Source: an uncultured Candidatus Saccharibacteria bacterium (GTDB lineage: Bacteria; Patescibacteriota; Minisyncoccia; Minisyncoccales; CAZUDS01). From it: 26,571 nt of DNA. Every line of letters begins with the position of its first letter. Positions within the stretch are counted from its first letter, which is position 1. Below the pieces are notes generated by a model. It did not search any database. It worked only from the letters and a program-made list of their open reading frames with translations, and had not been told where the DNA came from. Of this stretch, positions 109-26,571 are shown one piece after another. The stretch covers positions 1 to 26,571 of the forward strand of contig CAZUDS010000001.1 in assembly GCA_964619425.1 (NCBI GenBank). Reading direction: 5' to 3'. A program made the translations under genes and the position numbers.

Positions 109-1374
109 TTATTCCACAGTTGGTAGGGTAAAATGAAAGGTGCTTCCTTTTCCCTCCTCGGACTCAAACCAAATTTTTCCTCCATGGGCTTCAATAATGT
201 TTTTAGCAATGAAAAGGCCAAGGCCTGAGCCGGTTGTTTCCATTCTCATAATATTAGCCCCTCTGAAAAATTTTGTAAATACCCTTTCTTGCTGGTCCTT
301 CGAAATACCGACTCCCGTATCTTTAATTTCAAACTCTATTTCCTTTATACCTTTTTTCAAAGAAATTGTCATCCTTCCGCCTGGCATTGTATATTTAATT
401 GCATTATCAAGAAAATTTTGGACAACTAATTTTATCTTTTCCACATCCACCCGAACTTGAGGAAGCTTTTCTAGGGGGATGAGAAAACCAAAGTTAATCT
501 GCCGTCTTGATATCTCCTCTTTAAAAACATCTATTACCTCTTGACAAATCTTTTCAAACTGAACCGAAGTCAGCTTAAAAACATATCTTCCTTCCTCGAT
601 CCGAGCCACATTTAAGAGGTCGTTGATTAAACCAATCATTCTTTCATTGGACTGATAGGTTTTTTCAAGGAAGCCCAACTGCTCCTTGGTAAGCTTTCCT
701 AGATCTCCTTCCAAAAGCATCCGCAAGGTCCATTTAATTGCTGAAAGAGGCGTTCTCAGCTGATGAGCGGCGATAGAAACAAATTCGGTTTTCATCCTCT
801 CAATATGTTTTTCCCGGGTAACATCATGTAAAATTAACAAGGTGCCGATTTTTTTTCCTCCCTCTCCGGAAATAGGAAGCGAGCTTACTTCTAAAATTAG
901 ATTCTCGGCAATTTTTAACTTTTCTCTAAAAATTCTTTCAGGTTTCTTTTCTAAAAAGTCCAATAAAATCTTTAATTTAGGAAATTCCTTGAGAGCAGGA
1001 ACTTTTTTGCCGATAACTTCTTTGGCCTTTGCTTCAAAAAAAATTTTTGCCTGAGGATTAAAAATTGTTAAAACTAACTCATTGTCAAAAAATAAAAGAG
1101 CGTCAGCAAAATGATAAATAATTGCCTGGGTTTTATTTTTTTCTTCTTCAGCCCTTTTCCTGGCTTCTTCCACATCTTCCAAAATATTCATTAGGGCTCT
1201 TCTTGATTCTTCTAATCCTTTGGTTTTTGCTTGCGATTGCTGAAATTCTTCTTCTCTTTTTTCTCCAGGCAGAGTTAACTCCAGATCTCGCCTAACCAAC
1301 ATTTTAGCGATTCGGCCTGATTCTTGGGTTTCTCTTTCTCTTTTCTTAATTTTTTTAGTCAATTTTTCTTCCAT
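109..1374 (-). CDS. Cytoplasmic sensor histidine kinase (coiled coil - PAS - HisKA - HATPase_c), no transmembrane segment
   Basis: H box [13 protein letters not shown] box [11 protein letters not shown]1 DTGVGI, F box VFTKFFRG, G2 GSGLGL; PAS-like stretch ending HDVTREK. Confidence 0.95.
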
Positions 1375-1706: not shown

Positions 1707-3161
1707 TTATTCTTTTCCTTCCGACTCATTATTAAGTTTCTTTTTTAATTCCTCAAGTTCTTTCTTAATCTCTATCATTCTGAGTTCCCGGCCAATAGCC
1801 AACTTATTAAATTTTTCCAATTCTTCCATTTTTTCTTGAATCTCCCTTGTTTTTTCTTTTACCTGTTTATCAAGGCTTACGGCAAGTTCTTTTAATTCTT
1901 TTGTTCTCTCTTTAACTTTTACTTCTAAAATATCTCGCGCCTCTTTTACTTGATTGAAAGACGAATTAAAGGCCTCTTCTAATTCTTTAAATTCTTGGTA
2001 ATGCTTGGAAATCTCTATTTTTTTATCTTCTTTTTTGGTTTTTAGTTGACCAATAAAAGATGTAATTGGATAAACTAATTTCTTTCGTATTAAAAGATAG
2101 AAAGAACCAAAAATTATCAAAAAGGAAAGAAGGACTATTAAAATTAAACCAATTAAAAAATTTTTTTGCTCTAAATAGGCATCTATTTCCATACTTATCC
2201 CCCTCAAAGAAGCAAAATTTCCATAATCATCCAACTCCAACCAATAAACAACTCTATAATAAGCGCTTGTTTCGTCGTGGTGTGTCAGTTTGATTTCTTC
2301 AACAGTATATTCTTCCAGGACAAAGTTTTCTGTTTTCCATTCTAATTCTTTGCCAATTATTTTTTCTCTTCTCTCTTCTGCTGCTGCAACCAAGGCCTGA
2401 CTTGGCTTTATTTTCTCAGCGCTTTTTGGCGCAAAAAAGGAACCAACCACCTCTCCTGTTGGAAGAATTGCCGTAAAGGCGACGCCCGTTACCGCTTTAA
2501 TTGCCCCAACTAATTCTTTATGTTCGTTGACAAAAGAAACCCTAATTAAAACCCCGACCTGTTTATCATTTTCTTTGTCTATTACCGGGGTCATAATAGT
2601 TAAGCCCATTCCCGGCAGACCAAAACGATCGTAACCCTCTCTTCTCAAAAAATTTCTGTCATAGATTATTTTTCTAACGTCCACATTGCCATTCAAGGCC
2701 ATAGTAAGAGCTTGCTCAAAGGCGGAAGAAGGAATCCAACCATCTTTAATATGTCCTTCTTGAGCCAACTCTATTCTTTTCTTTCCCACCAATTCTCCTC
2801 TCGCCACAATAAACCCTTCTTGGTCAATAACCAACAGAACATCGCTGTCCAAAAGCACTCCAACTCTTTCCTCCCTTTCTTCTATTTGTATAAGACCTTC
2901 AAGAACCTCTTTTTTACCTCCGATCTCCAATAATTCTACTATCTCCTTGGCGACAATATAGTCGTTCAAACGAGCTTGTTTTAGTGTGCTTGATATTAGT
3001 ATATCCGCTTTTTCTATGTGAGTGATATGATGTTTTTCAATGGTTGTTCTTTGTGTTTCTATGAAAACCCAAAAGAAAAAAACAAAAACGACAGATAGTA
3101 TTAAAAAGCTAATAATAAATCTTCTTTGAACGCTTTTATCTATTTTTGGTAATTTAGCCAT
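1707..3161 (-). CDS. Membrane sensor protein: TM - extracytoplasmic Cache-like domain - TM - HAMP-like/coiled-coil tail, no kinase domain
   Basis: Two hydrophobic helices (FIISFLILSVVFVFFFWVFI; FLIGLILIVLLSFLIIFGSFYLLI), Cache-like motifs LLVIDQEGFIVAR and TPVIDKENDKQVGVL, terminal coiled coil FNKLAIGRELRMIEIKKEL. Confidence 0.8.
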   Translation of the reverse strand: MAKLPKIDKSVQRRFIISFLILSVVFVFFFWVFIETQRTTIEKHHITHIEKADILISSTLKQARLNDYIVAKEIVELLEIGGKKEVLEGLIQIEEREERVGVLLDSDVLLVIDQEGFIVARGELVGKKRIELAQEGHIKDGWIPSSAFEQALTMALNGNVDVRKIIYDRNFLRREGYDRFGLPGMGLTIMTPVIDKENDKQVGVLIRVSFVNEHKELVGAIKAVTGVAFTAILPTGEVVGSFFAPKSAEKIKPSQALVAAAEERREKIIGKELEWKTENFVLEEYTVEEIKLTHHDETSAYYRVVYWLELDDYGNFASLRGISMEIDAYLEQKNFLIGLILIVLLSFLIIFGSFYLLIRKKLVYPITSFIGQLKTKKEDKKIEISKHYQEFKELEEAFNSSFNQVKEARDILEVKVKERTKELKELAVSLDKQVKEKTREIQEKMEELEKFNKLAIGRELRMIEIKKELEELKKKLNNESEGKE

Positions 3162-3241
3162 ATTTTAAGAATCTTTAGTTAGAGATACGATTGATTATTT
3201 AATTCTATCATACTTCCAAATTTCCACCAAGCTAAACTTAT

Positions 3242-3256
3242 ACAGGTCTGACCTGT
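3242..3256. repeat. Short perfect palindrome (REP-like)
   Basis: acaggtc-t-gacctgt, 7-bp arms with a 1-nt centre. Confidence 0.55.
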
Positions 3257-3264
3257 GGCTATTT

Positions 3265-3345
3265 ACCCCGTTAGAAAGTTGTTTTTCAAGTCCGTAGAAA
3301 TGATGTCTGTTTAGTTGATGGGCAATGCGGGCTTTCTAACGGGGT
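3265..3345. repeat. CCCCGTTA-family palindromic element, copy 3
   Basis: accccgttagaaag (3265-3278) and ctttctaacggggt (3332-3345) form a perfect 14-bp IR with a 53-bp loop; abuts the stop codon at 3346. Confidence 0.9.
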
Positions 3346-4290
3346 TTATGGTAACCTTTCTATTAAACTAAAAAATTCAAATTTCTTTAAAATTTGAGTG
3401 GCTTTTTCTTTTTTATAATTTTCCCATTGGCATTCTTTTAAGTTAAAATCCAAAGGCACATTTTTGTGTATCTCGGCTAAATCCCTGCTGAAAAAGGCCT
3501 GCTCTTTGTATTCTTCGAGCTTCACTCGAAGACGCTGATTTACGCTGATTAGCACTGCCTTCGGCAGTGGCCGCTGATTTGATGCTGAATATAAGCTTTC
3601 TAAGCTACCGAATTCTTTAATTAATTTAATGGCGGTCTTCTCCCCTATCCCGGGCACACCAGGAATATTATCTGAAGGGTCGCCCTTTAAGGCCTTGAAG
3701 TCAACTAATTGCTCGGGGTTTAAGCCATATCTTTTTTTAACTGCCTCTTCATCATACAAAACAGTATCTTTTAGTCCTTTTTTAAAAGTATAGACCTTGG
3801 TGTTTTCATCAATTAATTGAAGGGTATCTAAGTCGCCGCTAAGAATAATATTTTCCACTAGAGAATAAGCTTGTCCCGCGCCAGAGATTTCGTTTTGGCG
3901 CAAGGCAGATCTTTTAACCGACTCTTTACTCAAGGTGCCAATAAGGTCATCGGCTTCGTATCCCTCTTTTTCAAAAACAGCAACATTAAATGCCTTTAAT
4001 ATCTCTTTTACCTTTGGAATTTGTTGGACTAATCCCTCCGGGGTTTTGGGTCTTTTTGCCTTATATTCTTTAAATTTTTGATGGCGAAAAGTAGGCGCTG
4101 GCAAATCAAAGCAAGCAGCTATAAAATCTGGCTTTAGTTCTCTGATGGCCTTAAAAAAAACCAATAAAAATCCATAAGCGGCATTGACCAATTCCCCTTT
4201 CTTGGTAGTCAAGGGAGGCAGAGCATGATAGGCCCGATGAATTAAAGCATTGCTGTCAATAATAATAAGCCGTTTTTTTTCTTTAGTCAT
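3346..4290 (-). CDS. 5'-3' exonuclease / flap endonuclease (PolA N-terminal domain, without the polymerase domain)
   Basis: IIDSNALIHRAYHA, CFD, GYEADDLIGTL, SGDLD, KGDPSDNIPGVPGIGEKTA (H3TH); ends at 314 aa. Confidence 0.92.
   Translation of the reverse strand: MTKEKKRLIIIDSNALIHRAYHALPPLTTKKGELVNAAYGFLLVFFKAIRELKPDFIAACFDLPAPTFRHQKFKEYKAKRPKTPEGLVQQIPKVKEILKAFNVAVFEKEGYEADDLIGTLSKESVKRSALRQNEISGAGQAYSLVENIILSGDLDTLQLIDENTKVYTFKKGLKDTVLYDEEAVKKRYGLNPEQLVDFKALKGDPSDNIPGVPGIGEKTAIKLIKEFGSLESLYSASNQRPLPKAVLISVNQRLRVKLEEYKEQAFFSRDLAEIHKNVPLDFNLKECQWENYKKEKATQILKKFEFFSLIERLP
3532..3590. repeat. CGCTGAT decamer repeat arm with internal hairpin, inserted in frame in the exonuclease gene
   Basis: acgctgattt acgctgatta - cactgcc ttc ggcagtg hairpin - ccgctgattt gatgctgaat; encodes SASNQRPLPKAVLISVNQR. 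Confidence 0.8.
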
Positions 4291-4378
4291 GTTTTCATTT
4301 TAACACAAAATAAAAAGAATTTCTCAAAAAAACTATTAATATAAATCCTATTTCTCCTATTGTTAAAGTAACTCTTCC

Positions 4379-4408
4379 CAGGGATCGGGTCCCTGGACCC
4401 GATCCCTG
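4379..4408. repeat. REP-like 30-bp palindrome downstream of the transposase
   Basis: cagggatcgggtcc-ct-ggacccgatccctg, perfect 14-bp arms. Confidence 0.95.
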
Positions 4409-4413
4409 TTTTT

Positions 4414-5124
4414 TTATTCTAGGGCGAGATCGGGAAACTTTTTGATTTTTCCTTTATATTGTATCCAATAATCCACAAATTTCTTCCAATCTTTTGGTTC
4501 CATTATCTTTAAAAGAAAATCTCTATCCGTGACTGAGGGAAAATTCTTTTTGCCAATATAGTCAGGATAACTTGACCATTTATAGTTTTCTAGAAATTCA
4601 ATAACTTTCTCTGGCTTTGTTATTTCTTCTTCTTTCCAGTTTGGCTCTACAAGGGCCACAGGATTAGTATGAATATATACAAAGACCGTTTTTAGCTGTT
4701 CATCATTTTTAATGTGAATAGCGCCAAATCTGCTTTGAAAAACATGTCCCATGCGATTATATTTTTTATTTAAATAACCTCCGTAGCCAGCACCCAGTTT
4801 CTGCATAAATTTTGAAATTCCCCCTTCTTTTATTTGTTTTAATAATAAATGAATATGATTCGGCATAAAACAAAAGGTCAAAATTTCCACCAACTTATCC
4901 CTTTTATCAACAACAGGAATCAAACCCTTGCTGGATTTTTTGAAACGGGCACGGGCCTCTCTCCGTTCTCTTATAGTAATTAGTCTTGTGGTATTGAACT
5001 CGTAGATAGAAAAAATCCCTCTGTAGTAATCATTAATGTCTTTGAAAACCAAATTCTCATCAATCCCCCTCAAGACAACATGATAAATTTCATCATTAAC
5101 AAATTGTTGGCGTCTATAAGGCAT
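4414..5124 (-). mobile_element. REP-associated tyrosine (HUH/Y1) transposase, RAYT / IS200-like
   Basis: IYHVVLRG, HUH motif FMPNHIHLLL, GHVFQSRF, catalytic Tyr region YIHTNP, YKWSSY; ATG start at 5124 preferred over TTG at 5139; flanked by palindromes. Confidence 0.92.
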
Positions 5125-5144
5125 AACTAGAATCCCCAAGCCCC

Positions 5145-5174
5145 CAGGGATCGGGTCCAGGGACCCGATCCCTG
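5145..5174. repeat. REP-like 30-bp palindrome upstream of the transposase
   Basis: cagggatcgggtcc-ag-ggacccgatccctg, arms identical to 4379-4408. Confidence 0.95.
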
Positions 5175-5178
5175 TTTT

Positions 5179-5724
5179 TTATTTTAGCATGGAGTTGTGA
5201 TTCTTTGAAATTGTAATTTTTCTTGTTTTTTTGTCAAGAAAATCGAAGTGTAGGCAGATTGTATTTTTTGGTAGTATCTTACCAAGCCGCTCTGCCCACT
5301 CAATAGCCACAATATTTTGAGGGTCAGAGATTATTTTTTTGAAACCCAAAACCAAAATCTCTTTTGGTTTCTCAACTCGATAACAGTCGATGTGATAGAG
5401 AGTAGAGGGTAGAGAGTAGAGAGTAGAGGATAGAGGGTGGCGCGTAGTTTTTTTTCTACCTTCTACTTTCCGCTCTCCACTTTCTATTTGAAATTTTCGC
5501 ATGATAATAAATGTCGGACTCAAAATTTTCTCTTTTACTCCCAGGCCCTTAGCAAAACCCTGCAAAAAAGTTGTTTTCCCTCCTCCTAAATCACCGAGCA
5601 AAGCCAAAACAACTGCGTTTTTTCGCAATTCTTTTCTTAAGATCTCTTTTGCTAAATTTTGTCCTAATTTTCTTGTCTCTCCGGGTAAAAAAGTGATAAA
5701 TTGGCTTCGTCTTGTTTTTGACAT
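5179..5724 (-). CDS. tsaE: tRNA threonylcarbamoyladenosine biosynthesis ATPase TsaE, with a repeat-derived insertion
   Basis: LLGDLGGGKTTF (Walker A), SPTF, YHIDCYR, IEWAE. Confidence 0.95.
   Translation of the reverse strand: MSKTRRSQFITFLPGETRKLGQNLAKEILRKELRKNAVVLALLGDLGGGKTTFLQGFAKGLGVKEKILSPTFIIMRKFQIESGERKVEGRKKTTRHPLSSTLYSLPSTLYHIDCYRVEKPKEILVLGFKKIISDPQNIVAIEWAERLGKILPKNTICLHFDFLDKKTRKITISKNHNSMLK
5396..5488. repeat. Inverted heptamer arrays inside tsaE (TAGAGRR x6 / YTCYRYY x5)
   Basis: tagagag tagaggg tagagag tagagag tagagga tagaggg (5396-5437) and ttctacc ttctact ttccgct ctccact ttctatt (5454-5488). Confidence 0.88.
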
Positions 5725-5868: not shown

Positions 5869-6888
5869 TTATTTCTTAGTTATAACAGATTTCCGCAAGA
5901 GCCAAGTTAAGACACGGGATTTAATCCATGCTTTGATTAGGAAAAAAAAGCCAATAAAAACCAAGGATAATTCGGCGGCTCTTAAAATTAAACTGAAAAC
6001 GGCTCCCAAGTCCGCTCCCAAGCCCAAAACCCCAAAAGTAAAGGTCTGGCTTAATTCCAAGCCACCTAAGGCCGCTGGCAAAGGCAAAGCATAAGCCATA
6101 TGAACAAAAGCGAAAATAGCCAGGGCCTGAAAGCCGTTAATGACAGTCCCCCCTAAAAAGAAGATAATAAGCCAAAATCTGGCTAAGTCCAAAAAAGCGG
6201 CCAAAAGGGTAAGTCCTAATCCTTGCCACATTACTTTATTTTTCGGCTTAAAAAAAGAAAAAATCTCTTCTTCTGTTTCAATAATTGCCTGATTGTTATG
6301 GTTCAAAGTAACATTTCTGCTAAAAATTTTTAAAAAATAAGCCAAAATGCTTTTTCTTCGGAAGCTCCGGTAATAAAAAAGGATTAAAACCACGGCTACG
6401 GCTAAAATAATAAAAGCAGAGATTAAAACAATCCCCTCTGAAGGTAAGCCCACTAAAAATAAAAAGGCAAAAAAGCCAAAGATTAAAAACAAAAGAATAA
6501 TACTCAAACTTAAAATTCTGAAGATAGCAACCGAAGCGAGGCTTTTTTGCCAAGGGAGAGAAAACTTTTTTCTCAAGCCCAGGGCCATAAAAATTCCTCC
6601 GCCAAGAAGGGCAATCGGCGTAAGATAAGTAATAGCAAAACCAACCGACCAAATCTCGCCTAAGCCCTTTAGAGAGAAATTATAGCCCTGTGTTCTTAAA
6701 ATAAATCGCCACCGCCAAATGTGAAAAATAGCTATCAATAAAGTTAATAAAAAAATTGCTATTCCCTGCCAACTCCTAAATAAGAGAAGGGGCTGTAAAA
6801 TCGCTTGCCAGCCAATCCTTCCTATAACTAACCAAAAAACGCCAACGCCAATTCCTAAAGAAAGTAAAAAAAGGAAGAGTTTTTTCAT
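5869..6888 (-). CDS. Lysylphosphatidylglycerol synthase TM-domain (UPF0104/flippase-like) membrane protein
   Basis: Multiple TM helices; RWRFIL, YLTPIALLGGG, SVAIFR, LPLPAALGGLE motifs typical of LPG_synthase_TM. Confidence 0.85.
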   Translation of the reverse strand: MKKLFLFLLSLGIGVGVFWLVIGRIGWQAILQPLLLFRSWQGIAIFLLTLLIAIFHIWRWRFILRTQGYNFSLKGLGEIWSVGFAITYLTPIALLGGGIFMALGLRKKFSLPWQKSLASVAIFRILSLSIILLFLIFGFFAFLFLVGLPSEGIVLISAFIILAVAVVLILFYYRSFRRKSILAYFLKIFSRNVTLNHNNQAIIETEEEIFSFFKPKNKVMWQGLGLTLLAAFLDLARFWLIIFFLGGTVINGFQALAIFAFVHMAYALPLPAALGGLELSQTFTFGVLGLGADLGAVFSLILRAAELSLVFIGFFFLIKAWIKSRVLTWLLRKSVITKK

Positions 6889-6898
6889 AAATAATATA

Positions 6899-6937
6899 AT
6901 GCGAATGATGCGAATGGTATTCGAATGCTGCGAATAG
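6899..6937. repeat. GCGAAT repeat arm downstream of the GxxExxY gene
   Basis: atgcgaatg atgcgaatg gtattcgaatg ctgcgaatag; abuts the stop codon at 6938-6940. Confidence 0.88.
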
Positions 6938-7339
6938 CTATTTTATATCTCGGTTTAGAACTCTTTTAGGGTAAAGATATTTTTGACGAAAATTAACAAT
7001 TAAACCTAATTTTTTATTACAAGAGACAAGGTACCGACGTAACTGAAAATAATCATCTTTTGCTATAAAGGGTTTTGCCTTTATCTCTAAAACAATTCTA
7101 TCGTCAATAATAAAATCGGGAATATTTCTTTCTTCTTTTTCTCCCTTAAAAGAAGGAGGTAATGCTTTTTCACGTACATATCCTATCTTATTTTCTTTTA
7201 ATAATTCCTCTATCGCGTCAGCATATTGCCTCTCGTTTCTATATCTCCCTAATTTATTATGAACATAAAAACAGAGACCACAAGTTTTATAAGATAATTC
7301 GGGATGGACTATATTGTTTTTTATTCGCAGCATTCGCAT
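6938..7339 (-). CDS. GxxExxY family protein (PD-(D/E)XK nuclease-like)
   Basis: LGRYRNERQY, PDFIIDDRIVLEIKA, QLRRYL, LGLIVNF. Confidence 0.92.
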   Translation of the reverse strand: MRMLRIKNNIVHPELSYKTCGLCFYVHNKLGRYRNERQYADAIEELLKENKIGYVREKALPPSFKGEKEERNIPDFIIDDRIVLEIKAKPFIAKDDYFQLRRYLVSCNKKLGLIVNFRQKYLYPKRVLNRDIK

Positions 7340-7344
7340 TTCAT
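7322..7344. repeat. ATTCGC repeat arm upstream of, and overlapping the start of, the GxxExxY gene
   Basis: tattcgcagcattcg (7322-7336) is the exact reverse complement of cgaatgctgcgaata (6922-6936). Confidence 0.85.
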
Positions 7345-7357
7345 TTGTAGATTGGCA

Positions 7358-7564
7358 TTAAATAGCTTTAATTAAATCCCGGAGCAGTTTTTGAAGGTCA
7401 ATTTGGTGAACTTCGGCTGCTTCTTCCAGGGTCTCTGTTTGAGCGGCCGGGCAACCAATGCAATGAAAGCCGTAATCAATAAAAACAAAAATGCTCTTAG
7501 GGTATTTTTTAATAATCTCGCCAATAGTCATTTTCTTAGTTATTTTTGATCTTCTTTGGCTCAT
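7358..7564 (-). CDS. DUF1858 (hybrid-cluster-associated redox disulfide) small protein
   Basis: ITKKMTIGEIIKKYP, GFHCIGCPAAQTETLEEAAEVHQID. Confidence 0.9.
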   Translation of the reverse strand: MSQRRSKITKKMTIGEIIKKYPKSIFVFIDYGFHCIGCPAAQTETLEEAAEVHQIDLQKLLRDLIKAI

Positions 7565-7585
7565 AGATACATTATAGCTTATTTT

Positions 7586-7687
7586 GCCCCGTTACTCATA
7601 ATTATTGTAGATAGATTCAAACTATTTGCCCTATTACATTATAAATCTCTGTAATTGTCCAGTAGCTGGATTTATGAGTAACGGGGC
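7586..7687. repeat. CCCCGTTA-family palindromic element, copy 4
   Basis: gccccgttactcataa (7586-7601) and ttatgagtaacggggc (7672-7687) form a perfect 16-bp IR with a 70-bp loop. Confidence 0.9.
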
Positions 7688-7752
7688 TTTATATAAACCA
7701 AAAACACCGCTTGGTCTGGTGGTGCTTTTGGAATGATTTCGGAGCAAAACGT

Positions 7753-9557: not shown

Positions 9558-9708
9558 AAATCCCAAATCCCAAATTCCAAATCACAAATAAATTCCAATG
9601 ACCGAAATCCCAATGACCGAAACAGAATTGTTTATAAAGAAGGTTTTGGTCATTTGGTCATTGGAATTTGGATATTGTTTGTTATTTGGTGCTTGGTGCT
9701 TGGAATTT
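9558..9708. repeat. 'Empty' CCAAAT/ATTTGG heptamer inverted-arm element (same family as the four-helix-bundle flanks)
   Basis: Left arm aaatccc aaatccc aaattcc aaatcac...caatgaccgaaac (9558-9623), 19-bp spacer, right arm gttttggtcatttggtcattg...ggtgcttggaattt (9643-9708). Confidence 0.92.
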
Positions 9709-12169: not shown

Positions 12170-12231
12170 TGAGTTAGTGTTGGGCTTAGGCCTAACACTC
12201 AAACATAGACGCTCACTTCGTTCGCGCCTAT

Positions 12232-12344
12232 ACGCGGATTTATGCTGATTTAGAATTATCCGCTGATTTACGCTGATAAGTAAGGGATTCCTTTTTAATC
12301 AGCGTCTATCAGCGTTAAAAAGTTAATCAGCGTTATATCAGCGT
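12232..12344. repeat. 'Empty' CGCTGAT/ATCAGCG decamer inverted-arm element (4+4 units, 17-bp spacer)
   Basis: acgcggattt atgctgattt..ccgctgattt acgctgataa / aatcagcgt ctatcagcgt..aatcagcgt tatatcagcgt. Confidence 0.9.
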
Positions 12345-12367
12345 ATCGGAATTTTCAAATTCCGATA
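12344..12367. repeat. Perfect hairpin just before the PBP1A start
   Basis: tatcggaattt-tc-aaattccgata, 11-bp arms. Confidence 0.75.
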
Positions 12368-14305: not shown

Positions 14306-14366
14306 ATGTTCAGATCCCGGCTTCGAACATTGGTTTTAGCAGTGTTCAGATCCCGGCTTCGAACAT
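14306..14366. repeat. Pair of ATGTTCAGATCCCGGCTTCGAACAT REP-like repeats
   Basis: Copies at 14306-14330 and 14342-14366 (24 of 25 bp identical), between convergent genes. Confidence 0.92.
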
Positions 14367-14659: not shown

Positions 14660-14692
14660 TGGAGAGTAGAGGATAGAAAGTAGGCCGCCTAC
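14660..14692. repeat. Short TAGAGRR heptamer run plus hairpin
   Basis: tggagag tagagga tagaaag, then gtaggc-c-gcctac; same unit family as the tsaE insertion. Confidence 0.55.
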
Positions 14693-15840: not shown

Positions 15841-16267
15841 ATTTTTAGACCATTGAATAACTCCCGTTTTTCTACGAAATTATCTATATTTATCTATTTC
15901 TATTCGTCTAATAGGGGCTGATTTACGCTGATAATAACACTGATTTACGCGGAAAAAATTGTTCAACAATCTTAATTATAAATTAAATTAATTATTATAG
16001 TTATTATTAAGGAAAAGATTTTTTGGGAATTATCTTGTTTATTAAAGAATTAGCAGCGTTTCGGTATCTTAAAACTAGTTAAAAAAATAAAGAATTACTT
16101 TGGGAATAAAATTTTATTAAAATTCTTCTCTTTTTATTCAGTATTTTTCCCCAAAAATTCCAGGGCCTTAATATGACAATCCGGAGAAAGTTTTATTTCG
16201 GATTTCCCGCCAAAACACTCCTGAAATACTCAAAAAATACTGTAATTTCTATTTCGTAATTCAAAAA
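15841..16267. other. Candidate oriC segment (dnaA-dnaN intergenic, very AT-rich)
   Basis: Near-pure A/T tract ~15972-16010; DnaA-box-like tgggaatta (16024), tgggaataa (16101), ttttcccca (16145); position between dnaA and dnaN. Confidence 0.5.
15916..15956. repeat. Solitary CGCTGAT decamer arm (4 units)
   Basis: ggctgattt acgctgataa ta acactgattt acgcggaaaa. Confidence 0.8.
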
Positions 16268-17803: not shown

Positions 17804-17826
17804 TTTCCGAGCCGGATCGCTAAGCC

Positions 17827-17893
17827 ATGTTCGAAGCCGGGATCTGAACATCAATAAAAGCGCGCCTGGATGTTCGGAGCCGGGCTTTGAACG
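17827..17893. repeat. Pair of ATGTTC...GAACAT REP-like repeats, inverted orientation
   Basis: Exact reverse-complement copy at 17827-17851; degenerate copy at 17870-17893. Confidence 0.88.
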
Positions 17894-17922
17894 CAGACAC
17901 CAGCCATCAATTTTCAGTATAT

Positions 17923-20189: not shown

Positions 20190-20324
20190 ATGTTCAGATC
20201 CCGGCTTCGAACATCCAAGTGGGTACAAATTACAAATGACTTACAAATATACAAATATTTGTATATTTGTATTTATTCGTAATTCGTACACTTTTATTGA
20301 TGTTCAGATCCCGGCTTCGAACAT
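20190..20324. repeat. Composite element: two direct ATGTTC...GAACAT REPs enclosing a TACAAAT/ATTCGTA inverted-arm element
   Basis: Exact 25-mers at 20190-20214 and 20300-20324; perfect 30-bp palindrome tacaaatatacaaat|atttgtatatttgta at 20242-20271; outer arms 20223-20237/20275-20289. Confidence 0.9.
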
Positions 20325-20328
20325 ATAT

Positions 20329-22528: not shown

Positions 22529-22623
22529 TTCCGCGCAAATCTGCGTTTTGATCAGCGTTTTATCTGCTTCTATTGGTTTTTACGTGAATTTGCGCTGATA
22601 TAAACGTTGATTATCGTTGATAA
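22529..22623. repeat. ATCAGCG/CGCTGAT decamer arms in tail-to-tail arrangement
   Basis: atctgcgtt, atcagcgtt, atctgctt (22539-22569) then acgtgaattt gcgctgatat aa acgttgatta tcgttgataa (22582-22623). Confidence 0.75.
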
Positions 22624-22644: not shown

Positions 22645-23571
22645 TTAGAAATAATGACAATAAAAGTCCAGTTCTGAGCATTCGGCTAAAAAACCTAAAT
22701 GCCTTGCTTCAGCGCAAATCCAGAGATGAGCGGTCATTCTTGTCCGGCAATGACTTATTTGTCTTCGGTAATTGTCAAATTCAATTTGAACTTTGGTTAG
22801 AAGTTTAATTTTTTCTTCTAAAAGCAAAATTTCCTTTTCTAAATCAGGCAGAAGTTGCTCGGCTAATTTTGTCGCGCTGCTACGAATTTGGGGGAGGCAG
22901 CCTCTGTTATCCTGCTTAGGAGGACAAATAGCACAGCATGTAGGACATCCAACCCTACAGTCGCTCCTAAAACTCCCACAATTACATCCCTGAGCAGCCG
23001 TTCTGAGTCCTTTAGCTGTATTGGCTATGTTATGGGGTCCGGTTATTAAATCATTCATTTTCTTAGCAATTGCTAAACTTTGTTTTTCTAAATCATGGAT
23101 TGCCTTAAAAGTTCTTTCAATAGGAATATGGGTTAGGCCTATTTTCCTTGGCGCTACCAGGCCAGGGTCAACTAATTCAGGCCTTTCTAAGGGCCGGACT
23201 GGCAAAATTTCAATTTCCCAAATTACTAATTTTGGGTCAATAGTGCTTAAGATAACATAGGAAGAGAACAAGAGCAAAAGACCCAAAAAGCAAGAAATCA
23301 CTCTTTGCCTTGCTTCTGACATTAATTTAGGATTGCCAAACGAAACAAGATATAAGAAGCCGGCATAAATGAGCAAACCGAGAGACAAAATAACTCCTAA
23401 GACCAAAAGGATTTGGTAAAAATAACGGAGCAGGTCAGGAATTTCTCTAGCCGGCGCTTCAATTCCTGGCAGAGCCGGGAGTTCTATTTCTTGAGCCGAG
23501 ACAATGGAAAAGCAGACGGGAAAAAAGAGAAAAACAAGAAAAAGAATTTTGACTAATTTTTGATAATTCAT
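22645..23571 (-). CDS. VirB2/TrbC-like pilin B fused to a Cys-rich helical-hairpin domain
   Basis: Signal peptide MNYQKLVKILFLVFLFF; LIYAGFLYLVSFGNPKLMSEARQRVISCFLGLLLLFSSYVILSTIDP; 12 Cys in the passenger; ends LDFYCHYF; ATG start at 23571 preferred. Confidence 0.85.
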   Translation of the reverse strand: MNYQKLVKILFLVFLFFPVCFSIVSAQEIELPALPGIEAPAREIPDLLRYFYQILLVLGVILSLGLLIYAGFLYLVSFGNPKLMSEARQRVISCFLGLLLLFSSYVILSTIDPKLVIWEIEILPVRPLERPELVDPGLVAPRKIGLTHIPIERTFKAIHDLEKQSLAIAKKMNDLITGPHNIANTAKGLRTAAQGCNCGSFRSDCRVGCPTCCAICPPKQDNRGCLPQIRSSATKLAEQLLPDLEKEILLLEEKIKLLTKVQIEFDNYRRQISHCRTRMTAHLWICAEARHLGFLAECSELDFYCHYF

Positions 23572-23583
23572 GTTTTTTTGTAT

Positions 23584-23624
23584 GTCGTGGGTTGTAAGAT
23601 GTAGAGCTACCTTCCACCCTCTAC
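23584..23624. repeat. Degenerate homologue of the 21778-21849 heptamer junction
   Basis: gtcgtgg gttgtaa gatgtag agctacct tccaccct ctac. Confidence 0.7.
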
Positions 23625-24308
23625 CTACAAAATCGGGCAAATATAATAGTCCAAACCGCTTTTTTGACATTCAATAAGTTGTCCTTGTTCTGTCCTTAAG
23701 CCGATGCTCTGAGCATGAAAGCAATTAAAAAGCAAGGTTCTTTCAAGGTCTCTTTGCGCCAATTTAGTTCCTGTGTTATTGAGTTTATCTTTTAGTTGGT
23801 CTAATTCAGGCGATAATTCTTCTAAAAGAATGCGTCTGGTTTCTTTGACTTCTTCTTCTAAGTTTCTGGCTTTTTCATAAAGTCTGGCAATTTCCCGTTT
23901 TTGGTAATCTGTAAGTCCGCCGGAACAAGGCCCGCCACAACCACCCTTGCCGCAGTCGCATTCAGAATCCATTCCTCTGCCATCTATGTTACCTGTTAGT
24001 ATTAATTCTCCATTAACTCTCTTATAAAATTGCATCCCGCGTTCTCGGCTTAATATCTGAGATATTTGAACAGTTATTTTGTTTATTTCGGAAAAGTCCT
24101 CCTCGGCCTTTGCTAAAAGTTGAATCATTTCATTTTGGATTTCCAAGGCCCGCTTGGGAATTTGACCTAGAGCCAGGACTGGCTGACATTCACCAATTGT
24201 ATCAACCAGAGAAGAGACCTGTTTTTTGGGCCAGACAAAAAATAGCAGACAAAGGAAAATGGTCAGGACTAAAAAGAGGAAAAGATTTTTTTTCCAGAAT
24301 TTATTCAT
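23625..24308 (-). CDS. Secreted/anchored Cys-rich helical-hairpin protein D (unknown family)
   Basis: N-terminal hydrophobic LFLFLVLTIFLCLLFFVW; helix - CDCGKGGCGGPC loop - helix; ends LDYYICPIL; ATG start at 24308 preferred. Confidence 0.8.
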   Translation of the reverse strand: MNKFWKKNLFLFLVLTIFLCLLFFVWPKKQVSSLVDTIGECQPVLALGQIPKRALEIQNEMIQLLAKAEEDFSEINKITVQISQILSRERGMQFYKRVNGELILTGNIDGRGMDSECDCGKGGCGGPCSGGLTDYQKREIARLYEKARNLEEEVKETRRILLEELSPELDQLKDKLNNTGTKLAQRDLERTLLFNCFHAQSIGLRTEQGQLIECQKSGLDYYICPIL

Positions 24309-24382: not shown

Positions 24383-24424
24383 CCGCTGATTTACGCTGAT
24401 ATAGGTGCTGATTATCGCTGATTA
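24383..24424. repeat. Solitary CGCTGAT decamer arm (4 units)
   Basis: ccgctgattt acgctgatat ag gtgctgatta tcgctgatta; 19 bp identical to 12260-12278. Confidence 0.85.
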
Positions 24425-24447: not shown

Positions 24448-25458
24448 TTAGTCGCCAAAACAATAAAAATATAACGGATTTCTATTACCTATATTAAAAT
24501 GGTCCAAAAAATCTTTTTGCTCTGCCTGGCTATTAATTAAAACATCTTTGCCTCCTTCTAACAAGCAATTACTTAAAATTCTCAGGTCTCGTATTAATTT
24601 TTTGGCTTGTTCTGAGGCGACTGTTTCGGCTATTATTTGCTCAAGTCCAGGCAGAGGTGTTTGGGTGTTGAAGTCCGTTTCTAAAACAATGGCCGGGACA
24701 GTAGGCCAGCGGCAGGATACTGGTGTTGGAGTACCACCAGGGCAAGGGTTACATCTTATGTCGACTGGTCGCCTACAGACTGTGCTGGCATCAGAGCAAT
24801 CTATTGCTTGATGAGGGCCTAGAATCCTTGGTTGGTCTGGTTCTCCTGGAGGCGGTGGTGTGTCATCTTGGTGTCCTTGTCGCCCCGGTTGCTCTAAGGT
24901 TTCAAGCAATCCTAATGTCGCCCGGATTCTTCCAGGCAAGTCAAGCGCCTCAAATTCAAAGATTTTTTCCCTTAAGAAATTAATTGTGTTATCAGTGTTT
25001 TGTTCAAAAGTGGTCAGTTGAGTATAGGACTTTGGCATTACTGGCTCAATTTCAACTCTAATTATTGGAGGGAGTTCCGGCGCTTCTTCTCTTAACTCAA
25101 CCCCGGGAACAGTAAGTTTAGGGTCAATGGTTCTGAGAATAATATAGGAAGAGAACAAGAGCAAAAGACCCAAAAAACAAGAAATCATTCTTTGCCTTGC
25201 CTCTGACATTATTTTAGGGTTGCCAAACGAGGTGAGATACAGAAAGCCGGCATAGATTAGCATGGCCAGGGCTATAAGGGCGCCGACAAATAAAAAGAAA
25301 TGATAAATATAGACAGCAAGTTCTTCAAGAGAAACGCCTATCCCAGGAGTGACGACTCCCGGAATGTCCGGCCATTCTATCTCTAATTCGCGACCAAAGA
25401 TAAAAGCCGGCAAAAACAGGAATAAAATCATTAAGAGTAAAGGGATTAGTTTTTTCAT
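24448..25458 (-). CDS. VirB2/TrbC-like pilin C fused to a Cys/Pro-rich helical passenger
   Basis: MKKLIPLLLMILFLF signal; LIYAGFLYLTSFGNPKIMSEARQRMISCFLGLLLLFSSYIILRTIDP; ends LYFYCFGD; the ATG at 25458 overlaps the upstream TGA (ATGA). Confidence 0.85.
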   Translation of the reverse strand: MKKLIPLLLMILFLFLPAFIFGRELEIEWPDIPGVVTPGIGVSLEELAVYIYHFFLFVGALIALAMLIYAGFLYLTSFGNPKIMSEARQRMISCFLGLLLLFSSYIILRTIDPKLTVPGVELREEAPELPPIIRVEIEPVMPKSYTQLTTFEQNTDNTINFLREKIFEFEALDLPGRIRATLGLLETLEQPGRQGHQDDTPPPPGEPDQPRILGPHQAIDCSDASTVCRRPVDIRCNPCPGGTPTPVSCRWPTVPAIVLETDFNTQTPLPGLEQIIAETVASEQAKKLIRDLRILSNCLLEGGKDVLINSQAEQKDFLDHFNIGNRNPLYFYCFGD

Positions 25459-25859
25459 GATGAGTGTTTTAATTCTAAATAAATTAATATTGTCCACCAG
25501 GTAAAACTTTCAAAAACAAGAACAGGAATAAACTCAAAAATAACAAGAAGCGGTCTGAGCCATCTCATTTTTTTTGCCCACTTCATCGCCCCAACCAACC
25601 TCTTTCCTGTTTTGGCTGGAACCCTTACGGCCCCAGATCTAAAAAGCATCCAAGCGCCAAAAAACAGAAGAGCGAAGATGTCAATGACAAATGAAATTGC
25701 TAGACCAACTACTGGAATCAAGTCAAAGAAAAATTCTGCCACATCAACAGAAACAGCTGTCGTCATCATAAGTACTCCTTCCGGGCTCCATAAAGCGTTA
25801 ATGCCGCTAATATGCTCCTGCCTGGCGCCTTCCTTTTCTATTGTAGCTGTTTCGGTCAT
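25455..25859 (-). CDS. Small multi-pass membrane protein heading the pilin array
   Basis: Hydrophobic segments with DLIPVVG and EFIPVLVFESFTWWT; translationally coupled to pilin C. Confidence 0.75.
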   Translation of the reverse strand: MTETATIEKEGARQEHISGINALWSPEGVLMMTTAVSVDVAEFFFDLIPVVGLAISFVIDIFALLFFGAWMLFRSGAVRVPAKTGKRLVGAMKWAKKMRWLRPLLVIFEFIPVLVFESFTWWTILIYLELKHSS

Positions 25860-25999
25860 AACGTGTCAAACCATTTAACTATTATAACTGCTTTGGTCAG
25901 ATATTTGATAGATTGACGCATTAAGTCATCTAAAATGTAAGTGAAATGGTATTGTTGGGTCATCTAAAAATACTTTGGGTGTCGCATGTTCAACTTTTT

Positions 26000-26065
26000 A
26001 AATTCCAAATTCCAAGCACCAAATTCCAAATAAATTTCAATATTCAATGACCAAATGACCAAAAC
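26000..26065. repeat. CCAAAT heptamer arm downstream of the four-helix-bundle gene
   Basis: aaattcc aaattcc aagcacc aaattcc...caatgaccaaatgaccaaaac; abuts the stop at 26066; its reverse complement shares 21 exact bp with 9643-9663. Confidence 0.92.
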
Positions 26066-26428
26066 TTATTTAGATTTTTCTATTATTGAAGAAAATATCT
26101 TTTTTAATTCTATTGCCTCTTTTAGAAGTTCTTCGCCTTCTTTTTTGAATTTCTCCTCATCGGTCTCAATTATTAGTCTCAACCAATGAACCGATTCTTT
26201 TGCTTCTTTCCTACATATTTTTATTCTCATTCTAAAGTCCTTTTTGCTAAATGACTCGTTAGCTTCGATGTAATTCGCTCCCACTGAACCCGATGATCTA
26301 ATTACTTGCCTCACATATTCAATGTTACTAATAGTTCTAGACAATTTCTTGCAGAAAAGAGCAACTTTCTTTGCAAATTGGTAGGTTCTTTCTTCTAAAT
26401 CGTATTTATTTCTCGTTGTTTCGGTCAT
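26066..26428 (-). CDS. Four-helix-bundle protein (23S rRNA IVP / bAvd-like family)
   Basis: YDLEERTYQFA, RQVIRSSGSVGANYIEA, SKKDFRMRIKICRKEAKESVHWL, ELLKEAIELKKIFSSI. Confidence 0.95.
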   Translation of the reverse strand: MTETTRNKYDLEERTYQFAKKVALFCKKLSRTISNIEYVRQVIRSSGSVGANYIEANESFSKKDFRMRIKICRKEAKESVHWLRLIIETDEEKFKKEGEELLKEAIELKKIFSSIIEKSK

Positions 26429-26558
26429 TGGAATTTGGTTATTGAATATTATTTGGTATTTGGTGCTTGGTGCTTGGAATTTCTTGTTTCAAAATTTCGG
26501 TCATTGGAATTTGGTTATTGAATATTATTTGGAATTTGGTATTTGGTGCTTGGAATTT
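26418..26558. repeat. Duplicated ATTTGG heptamer arms upstream of the four-helix-bundle gene
   Basis: Arms at 26418-26482 and 26495-26558 share an exact 38-mer (26419-26456 = 26495-26532); the first arm contains the gene's ATG. Confidence 0.92.
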
Positions 26559-26571
26559 GTTTAAAGTTTCG

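Follow-up and report, generated by a model that had tools for sequence, protein, structure and literature searches.

A palindromic hairpin cassette with a GxxExxY/PDDEXK_3 nuclease-like gene in the DNA of an uncultured Candidatus Saccharibacteria bacterium

What kind of genetic unit is formed when a small nuclease-like gene is enclosed by inverted repeats that supply its own start codon? This question is raised by a locus in the DNA of an uncultured Candidatus Saccharibacteria bacterium (assembly GCA_964619425.1, contig CAZUDS010000001.1, positions 1 to 26,571), a stretch of 26,571 nucleotides that was analyzed as a whole and is called the window. A preliminary description of this DNA proposed that a gene of the GxxExxY/PDDEXK_3 family is framed by inverted arms as a minimal selfish cassette. 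What had been described at this locus (6894-7363) was confirmed in every item. Furthermore, the same cassette design recurs in many lineages of the Candidate Phyla Radiation (CPR), beside far commoner gene-less hairpins with the same arm variants, and its closest known analogue is the class of intervening sequences (IVSs) of 23S rRNA that bear an open reading frame (ORF).

The cassette, its arms and its cargo

The cassette is a 470-bp palindromic module located at 6894-7363, between two co-directional host genes. Its parts and neighbors are as follows.

6938-7339, minus strand: GxxExxY/PDDEXK_3 gene of 133 aa, the cargo of the cassette, with TIGR04256 and PF13366 matches
7322-7363, minus strand: gene-upstream arm of four units, from the gapped arm alignment
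6894-6936, minus strand: gene-downstream arm of four units, from the gapped arm alignment
6922-6936: left copy of the 15-bp core of the inverted repeat, a perfect match to the right copy
7322-7336: right copy of the 15-bp core, encoding residues 2-6 (RMLRI)
7358-7564, minus strand: flanking host gene with a DUF1858/redox-disulfide domain (profile match)
5869-6888, minus strand: flanking host gene, LPG_synthase_TM/flippase-like (profile match)

The perfect 15-bp inverted repeat of the preliminary description was found as such, with 6922-6936 (CGAATGCTGCGAATA) being the exact reverse complement of 7322-7336 (TATTCGCAGCATTCG). When extended with gaps, the arms span 6894-6936 and 7322-7363, and 34 of 43 alignment columns are identical. 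The alignment score of 38 compares to a maximum of 24 in 200 shuffles, and the RNA duplex of the arms is predicted at -31 kcal/mol, with shuffled arms averaging -8.7. Both arms are paired in the minimum-free-energy fold predicted for the entire cassette, which contains 29 long-range pairs.

Each arm is about 42 nt long and consists of four units of 8 to 11 nt with C(G/A/C)AAT endings. On the gene's (minus) strand the upstream arm reads ATTTAATGCCAAT-CTACAAAT-GAAATGCGAAT-GCTGCGAATA. The downstream arm reads ATATAATGCGAAT-GATGCGAAT-GGTATTCGAAT-GCTGCGAATA on the plus strand, the reverse complement to the gene's strand. The GCGAAT arrays that had been noticed around the repeat correspond to GCGAAT-type units in both arms: they start on the plus strand at 6901, 6910 and 6930, with TCGAAT at 6921, and lie on the minus strand at 7337-7332 and 7328-7323, with ACAAAT and CCAAT farther out. 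Across the window, GCGAAT occurs 16 times compared to 11.2 expected and is not over-represented; the signal thus resides in the local clustering and the mirrored (inverted) arrangement of the units. CTAC recurs in the second arm unit, in a CTAC...GTAG orientation opposite to the GTAG/CTAC tag of REPINs, the hairpins built from repetitive extragenic palindromic (REP) sequences.

The arms also carry coding ends. Both in-frame ATGs of the GxxExxY gene (7337-7339 and 7331-7333) are located in the upstream arm, which encodes the MRMLRI codons, as had been claimed, and also includes the stop codon (TAA, 7358-7360) of the DUF1858 gene. At the other end, the TAG stop (6938-6940), described earlier as abutting the arm, is separated from it by one base, and 5 nt lie between the end of the downstream arm and the ATG of the LPG-synthase gene. 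The whole intergenic space is therefore occupied by the 470-bp unit. These neighbors, on the same strand as the cargo gene, are the two unrelated housekeeping-type genes between which the cassette had been placed. A scan detected no minus-strand sigma-70-like promoter or terminator-like site at the cassette ends, and Rfam at gathering threshold gave no match and no rRNA within the window.

How general is this arrangement? A homologue scan using one genome per species gave 80 loci, nearly all labelled Patescibacteria/CPR, and arms were called significant when their complementarity was at least 5 score points above the best of 30 shuffles. Significant complementarity between the start side and the post-stop side was present in 64 of 84 homologous gene copies (median 39 aligned nt, 85% identity), so the concern of the preliminary description that homologues might generally lack arms did not materialize. 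Of 59 significant cases, 30 have the ATG within the arm and 22 more have it no more than 30 nt away; in 38 of the 59, the far arm begins no more than 5 nt past the stop codon. The layout TAATGCGAAT-CTACGAAT-G-NNATGCGAAT-GCNNCGAAT-A, or more fully TAA-TGCGAAT-CTACGAAT-G-NN-ATGCGAAT-GCNNCGAAT-A, is common to genomes whose unit cores differ (CGAAT, CAAAT, CTAAT, CCAAT, CGGAT and CAGAT). N-termini such as MRMLRI, MRIPRI, MPQI and MLRI and an occasional C-terminal ...IRSIRI are translated arm sequence. The overlap of arms with coding ends thus explains both the seemingly conserved N-termini and the ...IRSIRI extensions.

Within this sample, cognate arms have a median score of 35 compared to 20 for non-cognate arms (Mann-Whitney p = 5e-22), and Watson-Crick pairs occupy the inner 17 positions in 79% of hairpins compared to 35% with permuted partners. 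Arm similarity correlates with protein identity (rho 0.34-0.37), and paralogues in one genome, 37-67% identical, each have a different arm variant. Collectively, the cognate match, the co-divergence and the distinct paralogue variants indicate that gene and arms travel as a unit; as judged from these comparisons, they are inherited together.

These results bear on the possibility that the arms are a chance or low-complexity artefact of AT-rich simple repeats. The absence of window-wide GCGAAT enrichment and the repeat-rich genome could be cited in its favor. It is refuted by the shuffle scores, by the homologue survey, in which the same architecture is present at about 60 independent loci, and by the comparison of cognate with non-cognate arms, and we regard it as extremely improbable. 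Even less credible is the reading of the arms as a TIGR-Tas or CRISPR-like guide-RNA array. TIGR arrays, made of short repeats and short spacers, are common in CPR (PMC12045711). Their units have a 36-nt period with two alternating 8-12-nt repeats and 9-nt spacers, occur 5 to 15 in tandem, and lie beside a Tas gene with a Nop domain (PMC12045711). Compared to these arrays, the cassette has a period of 8 to 11 nt, and its set of four units faces an inverted set of four; in the scanned ORFs of the window no gene with a Nop domain was identified, and Rfam gave no match. This reading was rejected on period, symmetry and the Nop-domain result.

Three distant plasmid homologues gave a mixed picture. 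The Treponema homologue has an 11-nt inverted repeat within the shuffle range, the Persicobacter homologue has AATCC arrays that are direct and not inverted, and the homologue on Gemmatirosa kalamazoonensis plasmid 1 (L213) has a hairpin of CGCGGAT nonamer units directly downstream of the gene (about 1915-1975 of the locus). The arm rule is thus established within the CPR clade (at least about 50% identity to the window protein), but not across the family at large. The last case, from a high-GC Gemmatimonadota replicon, suggests that the hairpin association reaches beyond CPR.

The cargo protein matches TIGR04256 (3e-20, 72.7 bits, cut-off 35) and PF13366 (1.2e-21, 77.6 bits, cut-off 22). The latter is its sole Pfam match, and no recognized transposase match was found in Pfam. 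The protein contains the catalytic signature E36-x-x-Y39, P74-D75 and E85-x-K87. Among 36 homologues that are 61-85% identical, 29 columns are invariant, including E36, Y39, D75 and K87, and position 85 is D or E (D in most, E in the window protein). Conservation of E36, PD, position 85 and K87 thus makes up the classical E...PD...(D/E)xK set, and the PD-(D/E)XK motif reported for the window protein is both present and conserved.

An AlphaFold2 (AF2) model built from the homologue alignment (predicted local distance difference test, pLDDT, 87.6; predicted template modeling score, pTM, 0.79) shows a minimal PD-(D/E)XK fold, whose element order H H E E E H E E includes the alpha-beta-beta-beta-alpha-beta order of the restriction-endonuclease-like fold. 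The top Foldseek matches in the PDB are all PD-(D/E)XK nucleases, although weak ones (best E 6.6e-3). They comprise a lambda-exonuclease-like enzyme, Cas4 SSO0001, tRNA-splicing endonucleases and the 125-aa archaeal Holliday-junction resolvases Hjc (template modeling score about 0.45). A PDB sequence-profile search with the protein gave no match, PADLOC gave no defence-system match, a phage database contained no homologue, and PHROGs gave one weak match to a family of unknown function. The cargo is probably an active, minimal PD-(D/E)XK nuclease, as suggested by its conserved residues and modeled fold.

To our knowledge, the arms of GxxExxY genes have apparently not been described. The literature found under GxxExxY, PDDEXK_3, PF13366 and TIGR04256 consists of lists in which arms are not described; curated family notes may mention them. 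The family itself is listed as function unknown (PMC3424549).

Insertion and gene-less hairpins

Was the cassette inserted between its two neighbors? The closest LPG-synthase orthologues (55-60% identical) were found by a protein search and then viewed on their contigs; a metagenome scan with the LPG-synthase protein gave no relatives. In two of these loci (L087 and L088), the DUF1858 and LPG-synthase genes share 4 nt (ATGA), with nothing between them, and in a third (L089) a degenerate DUF1858-like ORF shows the same overlap. A GxxExxY gene, a PF05635 gene and CGAAT arrays were absent from the DUF1858/LPG-synthase junction in all seven related loci. In the window, the DUF1858 C-terminus (...DLIKAI*) ends where those of the orthologues do (...DLNKLFS*), and the LPG-synthase N-terminus (MKKLFLFLLSL...) is unaltered. 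Since both coding ends are preserved, the cassette sits precisely in the former stop/start overlap. By this comparison of junctions the cassette is an insertion relative to related genomes, and it is very likely a discrete insertion cassette. The empty junction that had been anticipated in relatives was thus observed in L087-L089, but these proteins are only 55-60% identical to those of the window and the loci are therefore not an allelic empty site; no within-species empty allele was seen.

The genomic contexts of the homologues differ widely, as the 157 neighboring genes form 115 clusters. The gene is co-directional with its upstream neighbor in 68 of 79 loci and with its downstream neighbor in 66 of 78 (about 86%), and the median gaps to the neighbors are about 55 nt, mostly arm sequence.

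In the homologue loci, the spacing between left and right arrays is bimodal, being either 370-470 nt, with a gene inside, or 0-60 nt, in which case the hairpin is empty. For example, L028 contains an empty hairpin at 4369-4444 and a filled cassette at 2899-3379. Their left arms are identical over 38 of 38 nt and their right arms differ at 2 positions, and left and right arms differ from each other. Similar matching of empty to filled arms was found in L009, L047, L037, L077 and L027. In all five clearly callable cases, the empty hairpin has the orientation of the filled copy. When metagenomes were scanned with only the inner two units (ATGCGAATGCNNCRAATA) as seed, 43 arms in genuine arrays were obtained, at least 22 of them empty hairpins and two with GxxExxY genes; empty hairpins outnumber filled ones about 10:1 in this motif-seeded scan. 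In the two metagenomes that hold the window contig, other contigs match the arms only, at about 90% identity. One source-metagenome contig, which continues as ...GCGAATA-TTAAAGAATAAC-AATTCGCAG, is an empty hairpin with a depth like that of the window's genome.

An empty hairpin is also present in the window itself.

20223-20289: gene-less hairpin of TACAAAT/TACGAAT units without a loop, in a unit-unit-G-unit-unit-A layout

This site had been proposed as an empty site related to the arms. It is a gene-less hairpin of the same unit type and layout, but it is not a close copy of the arms. The composite repeat in which it lies (20191-20325) aligns end to end, with few substitutions, with a paralogue at 17815-17905 (minus strand), and the single large difference is a clean 66-nt GTAC...GTAC block that corresponds to the hairpin (20224-20289). 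After removal of this block, the spacer is 18 nt in both paralogous contexts and no duplication is evident. The clean presence or absence of 66 nt indicates that hairpins of the cassette design come and go precisely, without obvious duplication.

The composite repeat is built from a 25-nt repeat (ATGTTCAGATCCCGGCTTCGAACAT) with 6-nt palindromic ends, which occurs at 14307-14331, 17826-17850 (minus), about 17868-17892 (minus), 20191-20215 and 20301-20325. It is found singly or in direct pairs with an 18-nt spacer, and one of the pairs hosts the hairpin at 20224-20289.

The abundance of empty hairpins is central to one alternative, a domesticated system resembling REPINs and their REP-associated tyrosine transposases (RAYTs), in which a low-copy, mostly vertically inherited nuclease would disperse or maintain hairpins of its own variant in trans, with no copying of its own gene. 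The position of the gene between hairpin halves would then have the same cause as that of RAYT genes between inverted REPs. The likeness extends to gene-less doublets dispersed intergenically, to an own repeat variant for each gene lineage, and to largely vertical inheritance. Empty hairpins that far outnumber filled ones, that match both the left and the right arm of the filled copy in the same genome and that share its orientation in 5/5 clear cases would be expected of such a system, as would the distinct arm variants of paralogues and, in two clades, the long persistence of the cassette at one site despite divergence (see below). However, a 130-aa PD-(D/E)XK protein has no known strand-transfer chemistry, compared to the Y1 HUH (IS200-like) transposase of RAYT systems. 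The arms are four-unit arrays and not a single GTAG- or CGTC-tagged REP stem-loop, the RAYT-like gene of the window (4414-5139) has its own separate REPs, and PF05635-bearing and cargo-less hairpin types occur with no nuclease in view. We consider this alternative improbable.

Intervening sequences and a possible mechanism

Does the design depend on the GxxExxY gene? Several other structures of related build are present in the window.

25997-26565, minus strand: second cassette of the same design with PF05635 cargo and CCAAAT-type inverted arms
26066-26428, minus strand: PF05635 (23S_rRNA_IVP, Avd-like) gene inside the second cassette
9558-9708: gene-less hairpin of the CCAAAT unit type
12227-12349 and 22544-22606: gene-less hairpins of GCTGAT units
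15905-15944 and 24383-24422: single GCTGAT arrays

The arms of the second cassette are located at 25997-26056 on one side and at 26429-26490 on the other, with a second copy of the latter at 26509-26565, at the window edge. In total, about nine unit-array structures with at least four hairpin unit types are present in the 26.5-kb window. One hairpin lies within a coding sequence: tsaE (5179-5724, minus strand) contains an in-frame insertion of about 90 nt (about 5395-5480; protein ...ESGERKVEGRKKTTRHPLSSTLYSLPSTLY...), a hairpin of CTCTAC/GTAGAG heptamer-like units (-30.7 kcal/mol) that splits the Pfam TsaE match in two. Short arrays related to the units of this insertion occur at 14666 and 21826. 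A unit-blind inverted-repeat scan of all collected loci found three more PF05635 genes in hairpins of yet other units, in L074, L058 and L029. PrgI-like, NUDIX, Trp-repressor-like and larger ORFs were rejected as cargo, being ordinary genes between two separate hairpins.

The PF05635 family was first found in intervening sequences of 23S rRNA, and the closest known analogue of the cassette is an ORF-bearing IVS of this kind, as present in Coxiella burnetii, Leptospira and Brucella. The Coxiella IVS is a 428-444-nt element with a 28-bp terminal stem, in which three to four tandem GACAGAT heptamers directly precede the ATG of a PF05635 ORF; this ORF has no usable ribosome-binding site, and RNase III cleaves within the stem (PMC4990558). 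The origin and mobility of IVSs and the role of their ORF are still open, and an old proposal holds that the ORF encodes a mobility component (PMC4990558). Among the rRNA insertions surveyed in CPR, 23S_rRNA_IVP ORFs are listed and PDDEXK ORFs are not (PMC11270868).

The cassette resembles these elements in several features. First, both are modules of about 430-480 nt in which a stem formed by terminal inverted repeats encloses a single small ORF. Second, tandem heptamer-like units precede the ORF start, the window cassette having four per arm with the ATG in the last units. Third, the distribution is sporadic, and mobility is suspected and unexplained. Fourth, PF05635 genes occur in the same kind of hairpin, both in the second cassette and in L029, L058 and L074. 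In view of the matching build (four units, an ORF-closing stem, and an ATG at the inner end of the arm), the cassette quite likely belongs to the same architecture class. It differs in being located between protein-coding genes and not in helix 25 or 45 of 23S rRNA, in its PF13366 (GxxExxY) cargo instead of a PF05635 (S23p) protein, and in having matched gene-less copies of its hairpin dispersed through the genome. Furthermore, RNase III cleavage is documented for rRNA IVSs, whereas the stem of the cassette is a predicted one; a search for RNA-seq runs of the organism returned DNA metagenomes only.

On these grounds, all of them comparative, we tentatively favor, at slightly less than even confidence for the reading as a whole, an IVS-type hairpin cassette outside rRNA, placed at a formerly overlapping gene junction and carrying a nuclease as cargo. 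The cassette would be transcribed by read-through from the host operon, because of the co-orientation in about 86% of cases and the lack of promoter or terminator signals of its own. In the transcript, pairing of the arms would create a long stem with the start codons hidden in it, so that translation would be mainly limited to the interval before the 3' arm is transcribed. The stem may also be an RNase III substrate, in which case the cassette would be cut out of the mRNA, by analogy with rRNA IVSs. The idea of an RNA stem that occludes the start codon or is processed by RNase III has about an even chance of being correct. A related effect is known from the fold-back inhibition of IS10 and IS50, in which the end of a read-through transcript pairs with the start-codon region and blocks translation of the transposase. 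In the cassette, by contrast, pairing would involve the far arm, located 400 nt downstream, and the block of translation is a prediction.

At the DNA level, the least certain part of the favored reading, the arms are long enough that they might extrude as a hairpin or cruciform. The nuclease would then be a selfish cargo, a small structure-specific enzyme with an Hjc/Cas4-like fold that cuts hairpin or cruciform DNA of gene-less copies, and repair from a filled copy through about 40 bp of arm homology would copy the gene into the loop ("homing into hairpins"). An action of the nuclease on hairpins is plausible, if on balance doubtful. Homing into hairpins is compatible with the filled and empty pairs.

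This scheme can be compared with two familiar types of mobile DNA. Homing endonuclease genes, among which the PD-(D/E)XK enzyme I-Ssp6803I is counted, are likewise small nuclease genes; they occupy, or are missing from, one exact site in DNA that is conserved around it, a pattern that the cassette may share, and copying of the homing type would need only a cut and host repair. Unlike these, the cassette is not in an intron or intein, and its putative target is a hairpin structure and not a long asymmetric sequence. Insertion sequences (IS) and miniature inverted-repeat transposable elements (MITEs) share with the cassette terminal inverted repeats, gene-bearing and gene-less copies with matching ends, and intergenic insertion. 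They differ from it in that the cassette lacks a DDE or serine transposase and shows no clear target-site duplication, and in that the whole cassette is one hairpin with arms abutting start and stop codons.

The variety of hairpins in the window also lends itself to another explanation, in which hairpins are general intergenic structural elements of RNA or DNA (operon punctuation, RNase III sites or mRNA stabilizers) that are spread by a host mechanism or an unrelated one. Genes would reside in their insertion-tolerant loops as passengers, the stem would throttle their expression, and the nuclease would serve the cell in a way not connected with the arms, for example in repair or defence. Consistent with this explanation are the at least four unit types in the window, most of them cargo-less and one in-frame in tsaE; the sharing of one design by two unrelated cargo families; the RNase III processing documented for IVSs of the same build; and the co-orientation of the gene with transcription in about 86% of loci. 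However, only two small protein families recur as cargo, which looks like a specific association and not like random passengers. Arms frame start and stop codons with near-nucleotide precision in most loci, arms and protein co-diverge, and the protein has no match to known defence families. We consider the passenger explanation rather unlikely.

Several observations weigh against the favored IVS-type reading with nuclease cargo, above all against its mobile part. First, besides the weak Foldseek matches, the cassette-lacking relatives are distant, no true within-species empty allele was seen, and no clear target-site duplication was found at the borders. TATTTA(A)TG is present at both of them, and it is weak evidence of target duplication because the DNA is AT-rich. 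Second, two groups of four loci share an upstream neighbor (L005/L018/L055/L068 and L024/L030/L038/L082). Within both groups the cassette occupies the same site, with neighbor proteins 59-93% identical and GxxExxY proteins 49-74% identical. Such retention over long divergence in two clades implies that any mobility is slow; these identities also suggest that the GxxExxY gene tends to evolve as fast as its neighbors or faster. Third, no near-identical paralogue pairs were seen in any one genome, the paralogues being old. Together with the persistence of sites, this speaks against frequent homing and is what would be expected of an element that moves slowly or is partly domesticated. Fourth, hairpins of the same design with PF05635 or no cargo suggest that hairpin spread does not obviously depend on the GxxExxY nuclease. 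Fifth, among arm mismatches, G.U counts are 79 and 74 on the two strands, and transversions are as common as transitions. The absence of a G.U bias means that there is no independent RNA signature beyond complementarity, and it neither supports nor opposes selection at the RNA level.

The idea of a selfish cassette in the preliminary description thus stands as far as a discrete, insertion-type unit is concerned; given the same-site copies in two clades, the unit is not highly mobile. Homing into hairpins in particular is weakened by the old paralogues, by the long-term stability of sites and by the PF05635-bearing and cargo-less hairpins. The broadest form of the idea would make GxxExxY nucleases the missing mobility enzymes of a large, undescribed class of hairpin elements that includes the rRNA IVSs, with homing to palindrome centers by a cut at the tip or junction of a gene-less hairpin or cruciform and gene transfer by repair from a filled copy through the arms of about 40 bp; we view it as unlikely.

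These results have several implications. Intervening sequences of rRNA have been known since 1990, and the same design is now seen in large numbers outside rRNA in CPR, with matched filled and empty forms and with two small protein families as recurrent cargo, one of them a nuclease with an intact active site. The old idea of the ORF as a mobility component therefore becomes directly testable with a 133-aa protein and 40-nt oligonucleotides. The uncharacterized GxxExxY/PDDEXK_3 family gains a genomic context, and annotation artefacts such as MRMLRI-type N-termini and short ORFs of RI/TN repeats are explained. For CPR genomics, the hairpins represent a dense intergenic, and even intragenic, class that breaks assemblies and may punctuate operons. 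Homing to palindrome centers, if true, would define a novel type of selfish element, aimed at DNA structure and not sequence, and would also explain the origin of IVSs.

Other repeats in the window

Several further repeats were observed. A RAYT-like gene of the Y1 transposase type (4414-5139, PF01797) lies between inverted GC-rich palindromes (CAGGGATCGGGTCCCTGGACCCGATCCCTG) at 4379-4408 and 5145-5174. The region 4379-5174 is a classical REP/RAYT arrangement, separate from the CGAAT hairpins.

In the intergenic region that precedes the DUF1858 gene (7582-7688), a segment of 105 nt between GCCCCGTTACTCATAA and its inverted copy is missing from low-depth contigs of both source metagenomes, which indicates a presence/absence polymorphism of another palindromic element. 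A further inverted repeat family (TTTACCCCGTTAGAAA / TTTCTAACGGGG) occurs in three intergenic regions (1395-1460, 1690-1707 and 3262-3346). At the start of the window, positions 1-60, just past the 3' end of a histidine-kinase gene (109-1374, minus strand), contain four ATTCG(C/T) units with a spacing of 13-15 nt, possibly the first arm of a hairpin severed by the contig end. Finally, the paralogous ORFs at 22645-23670 and 24448-25497 have weak matches, at or just below the cut-off, to PF18895 (type IV secretion pilin), and GCTGAT arrays separate the two.

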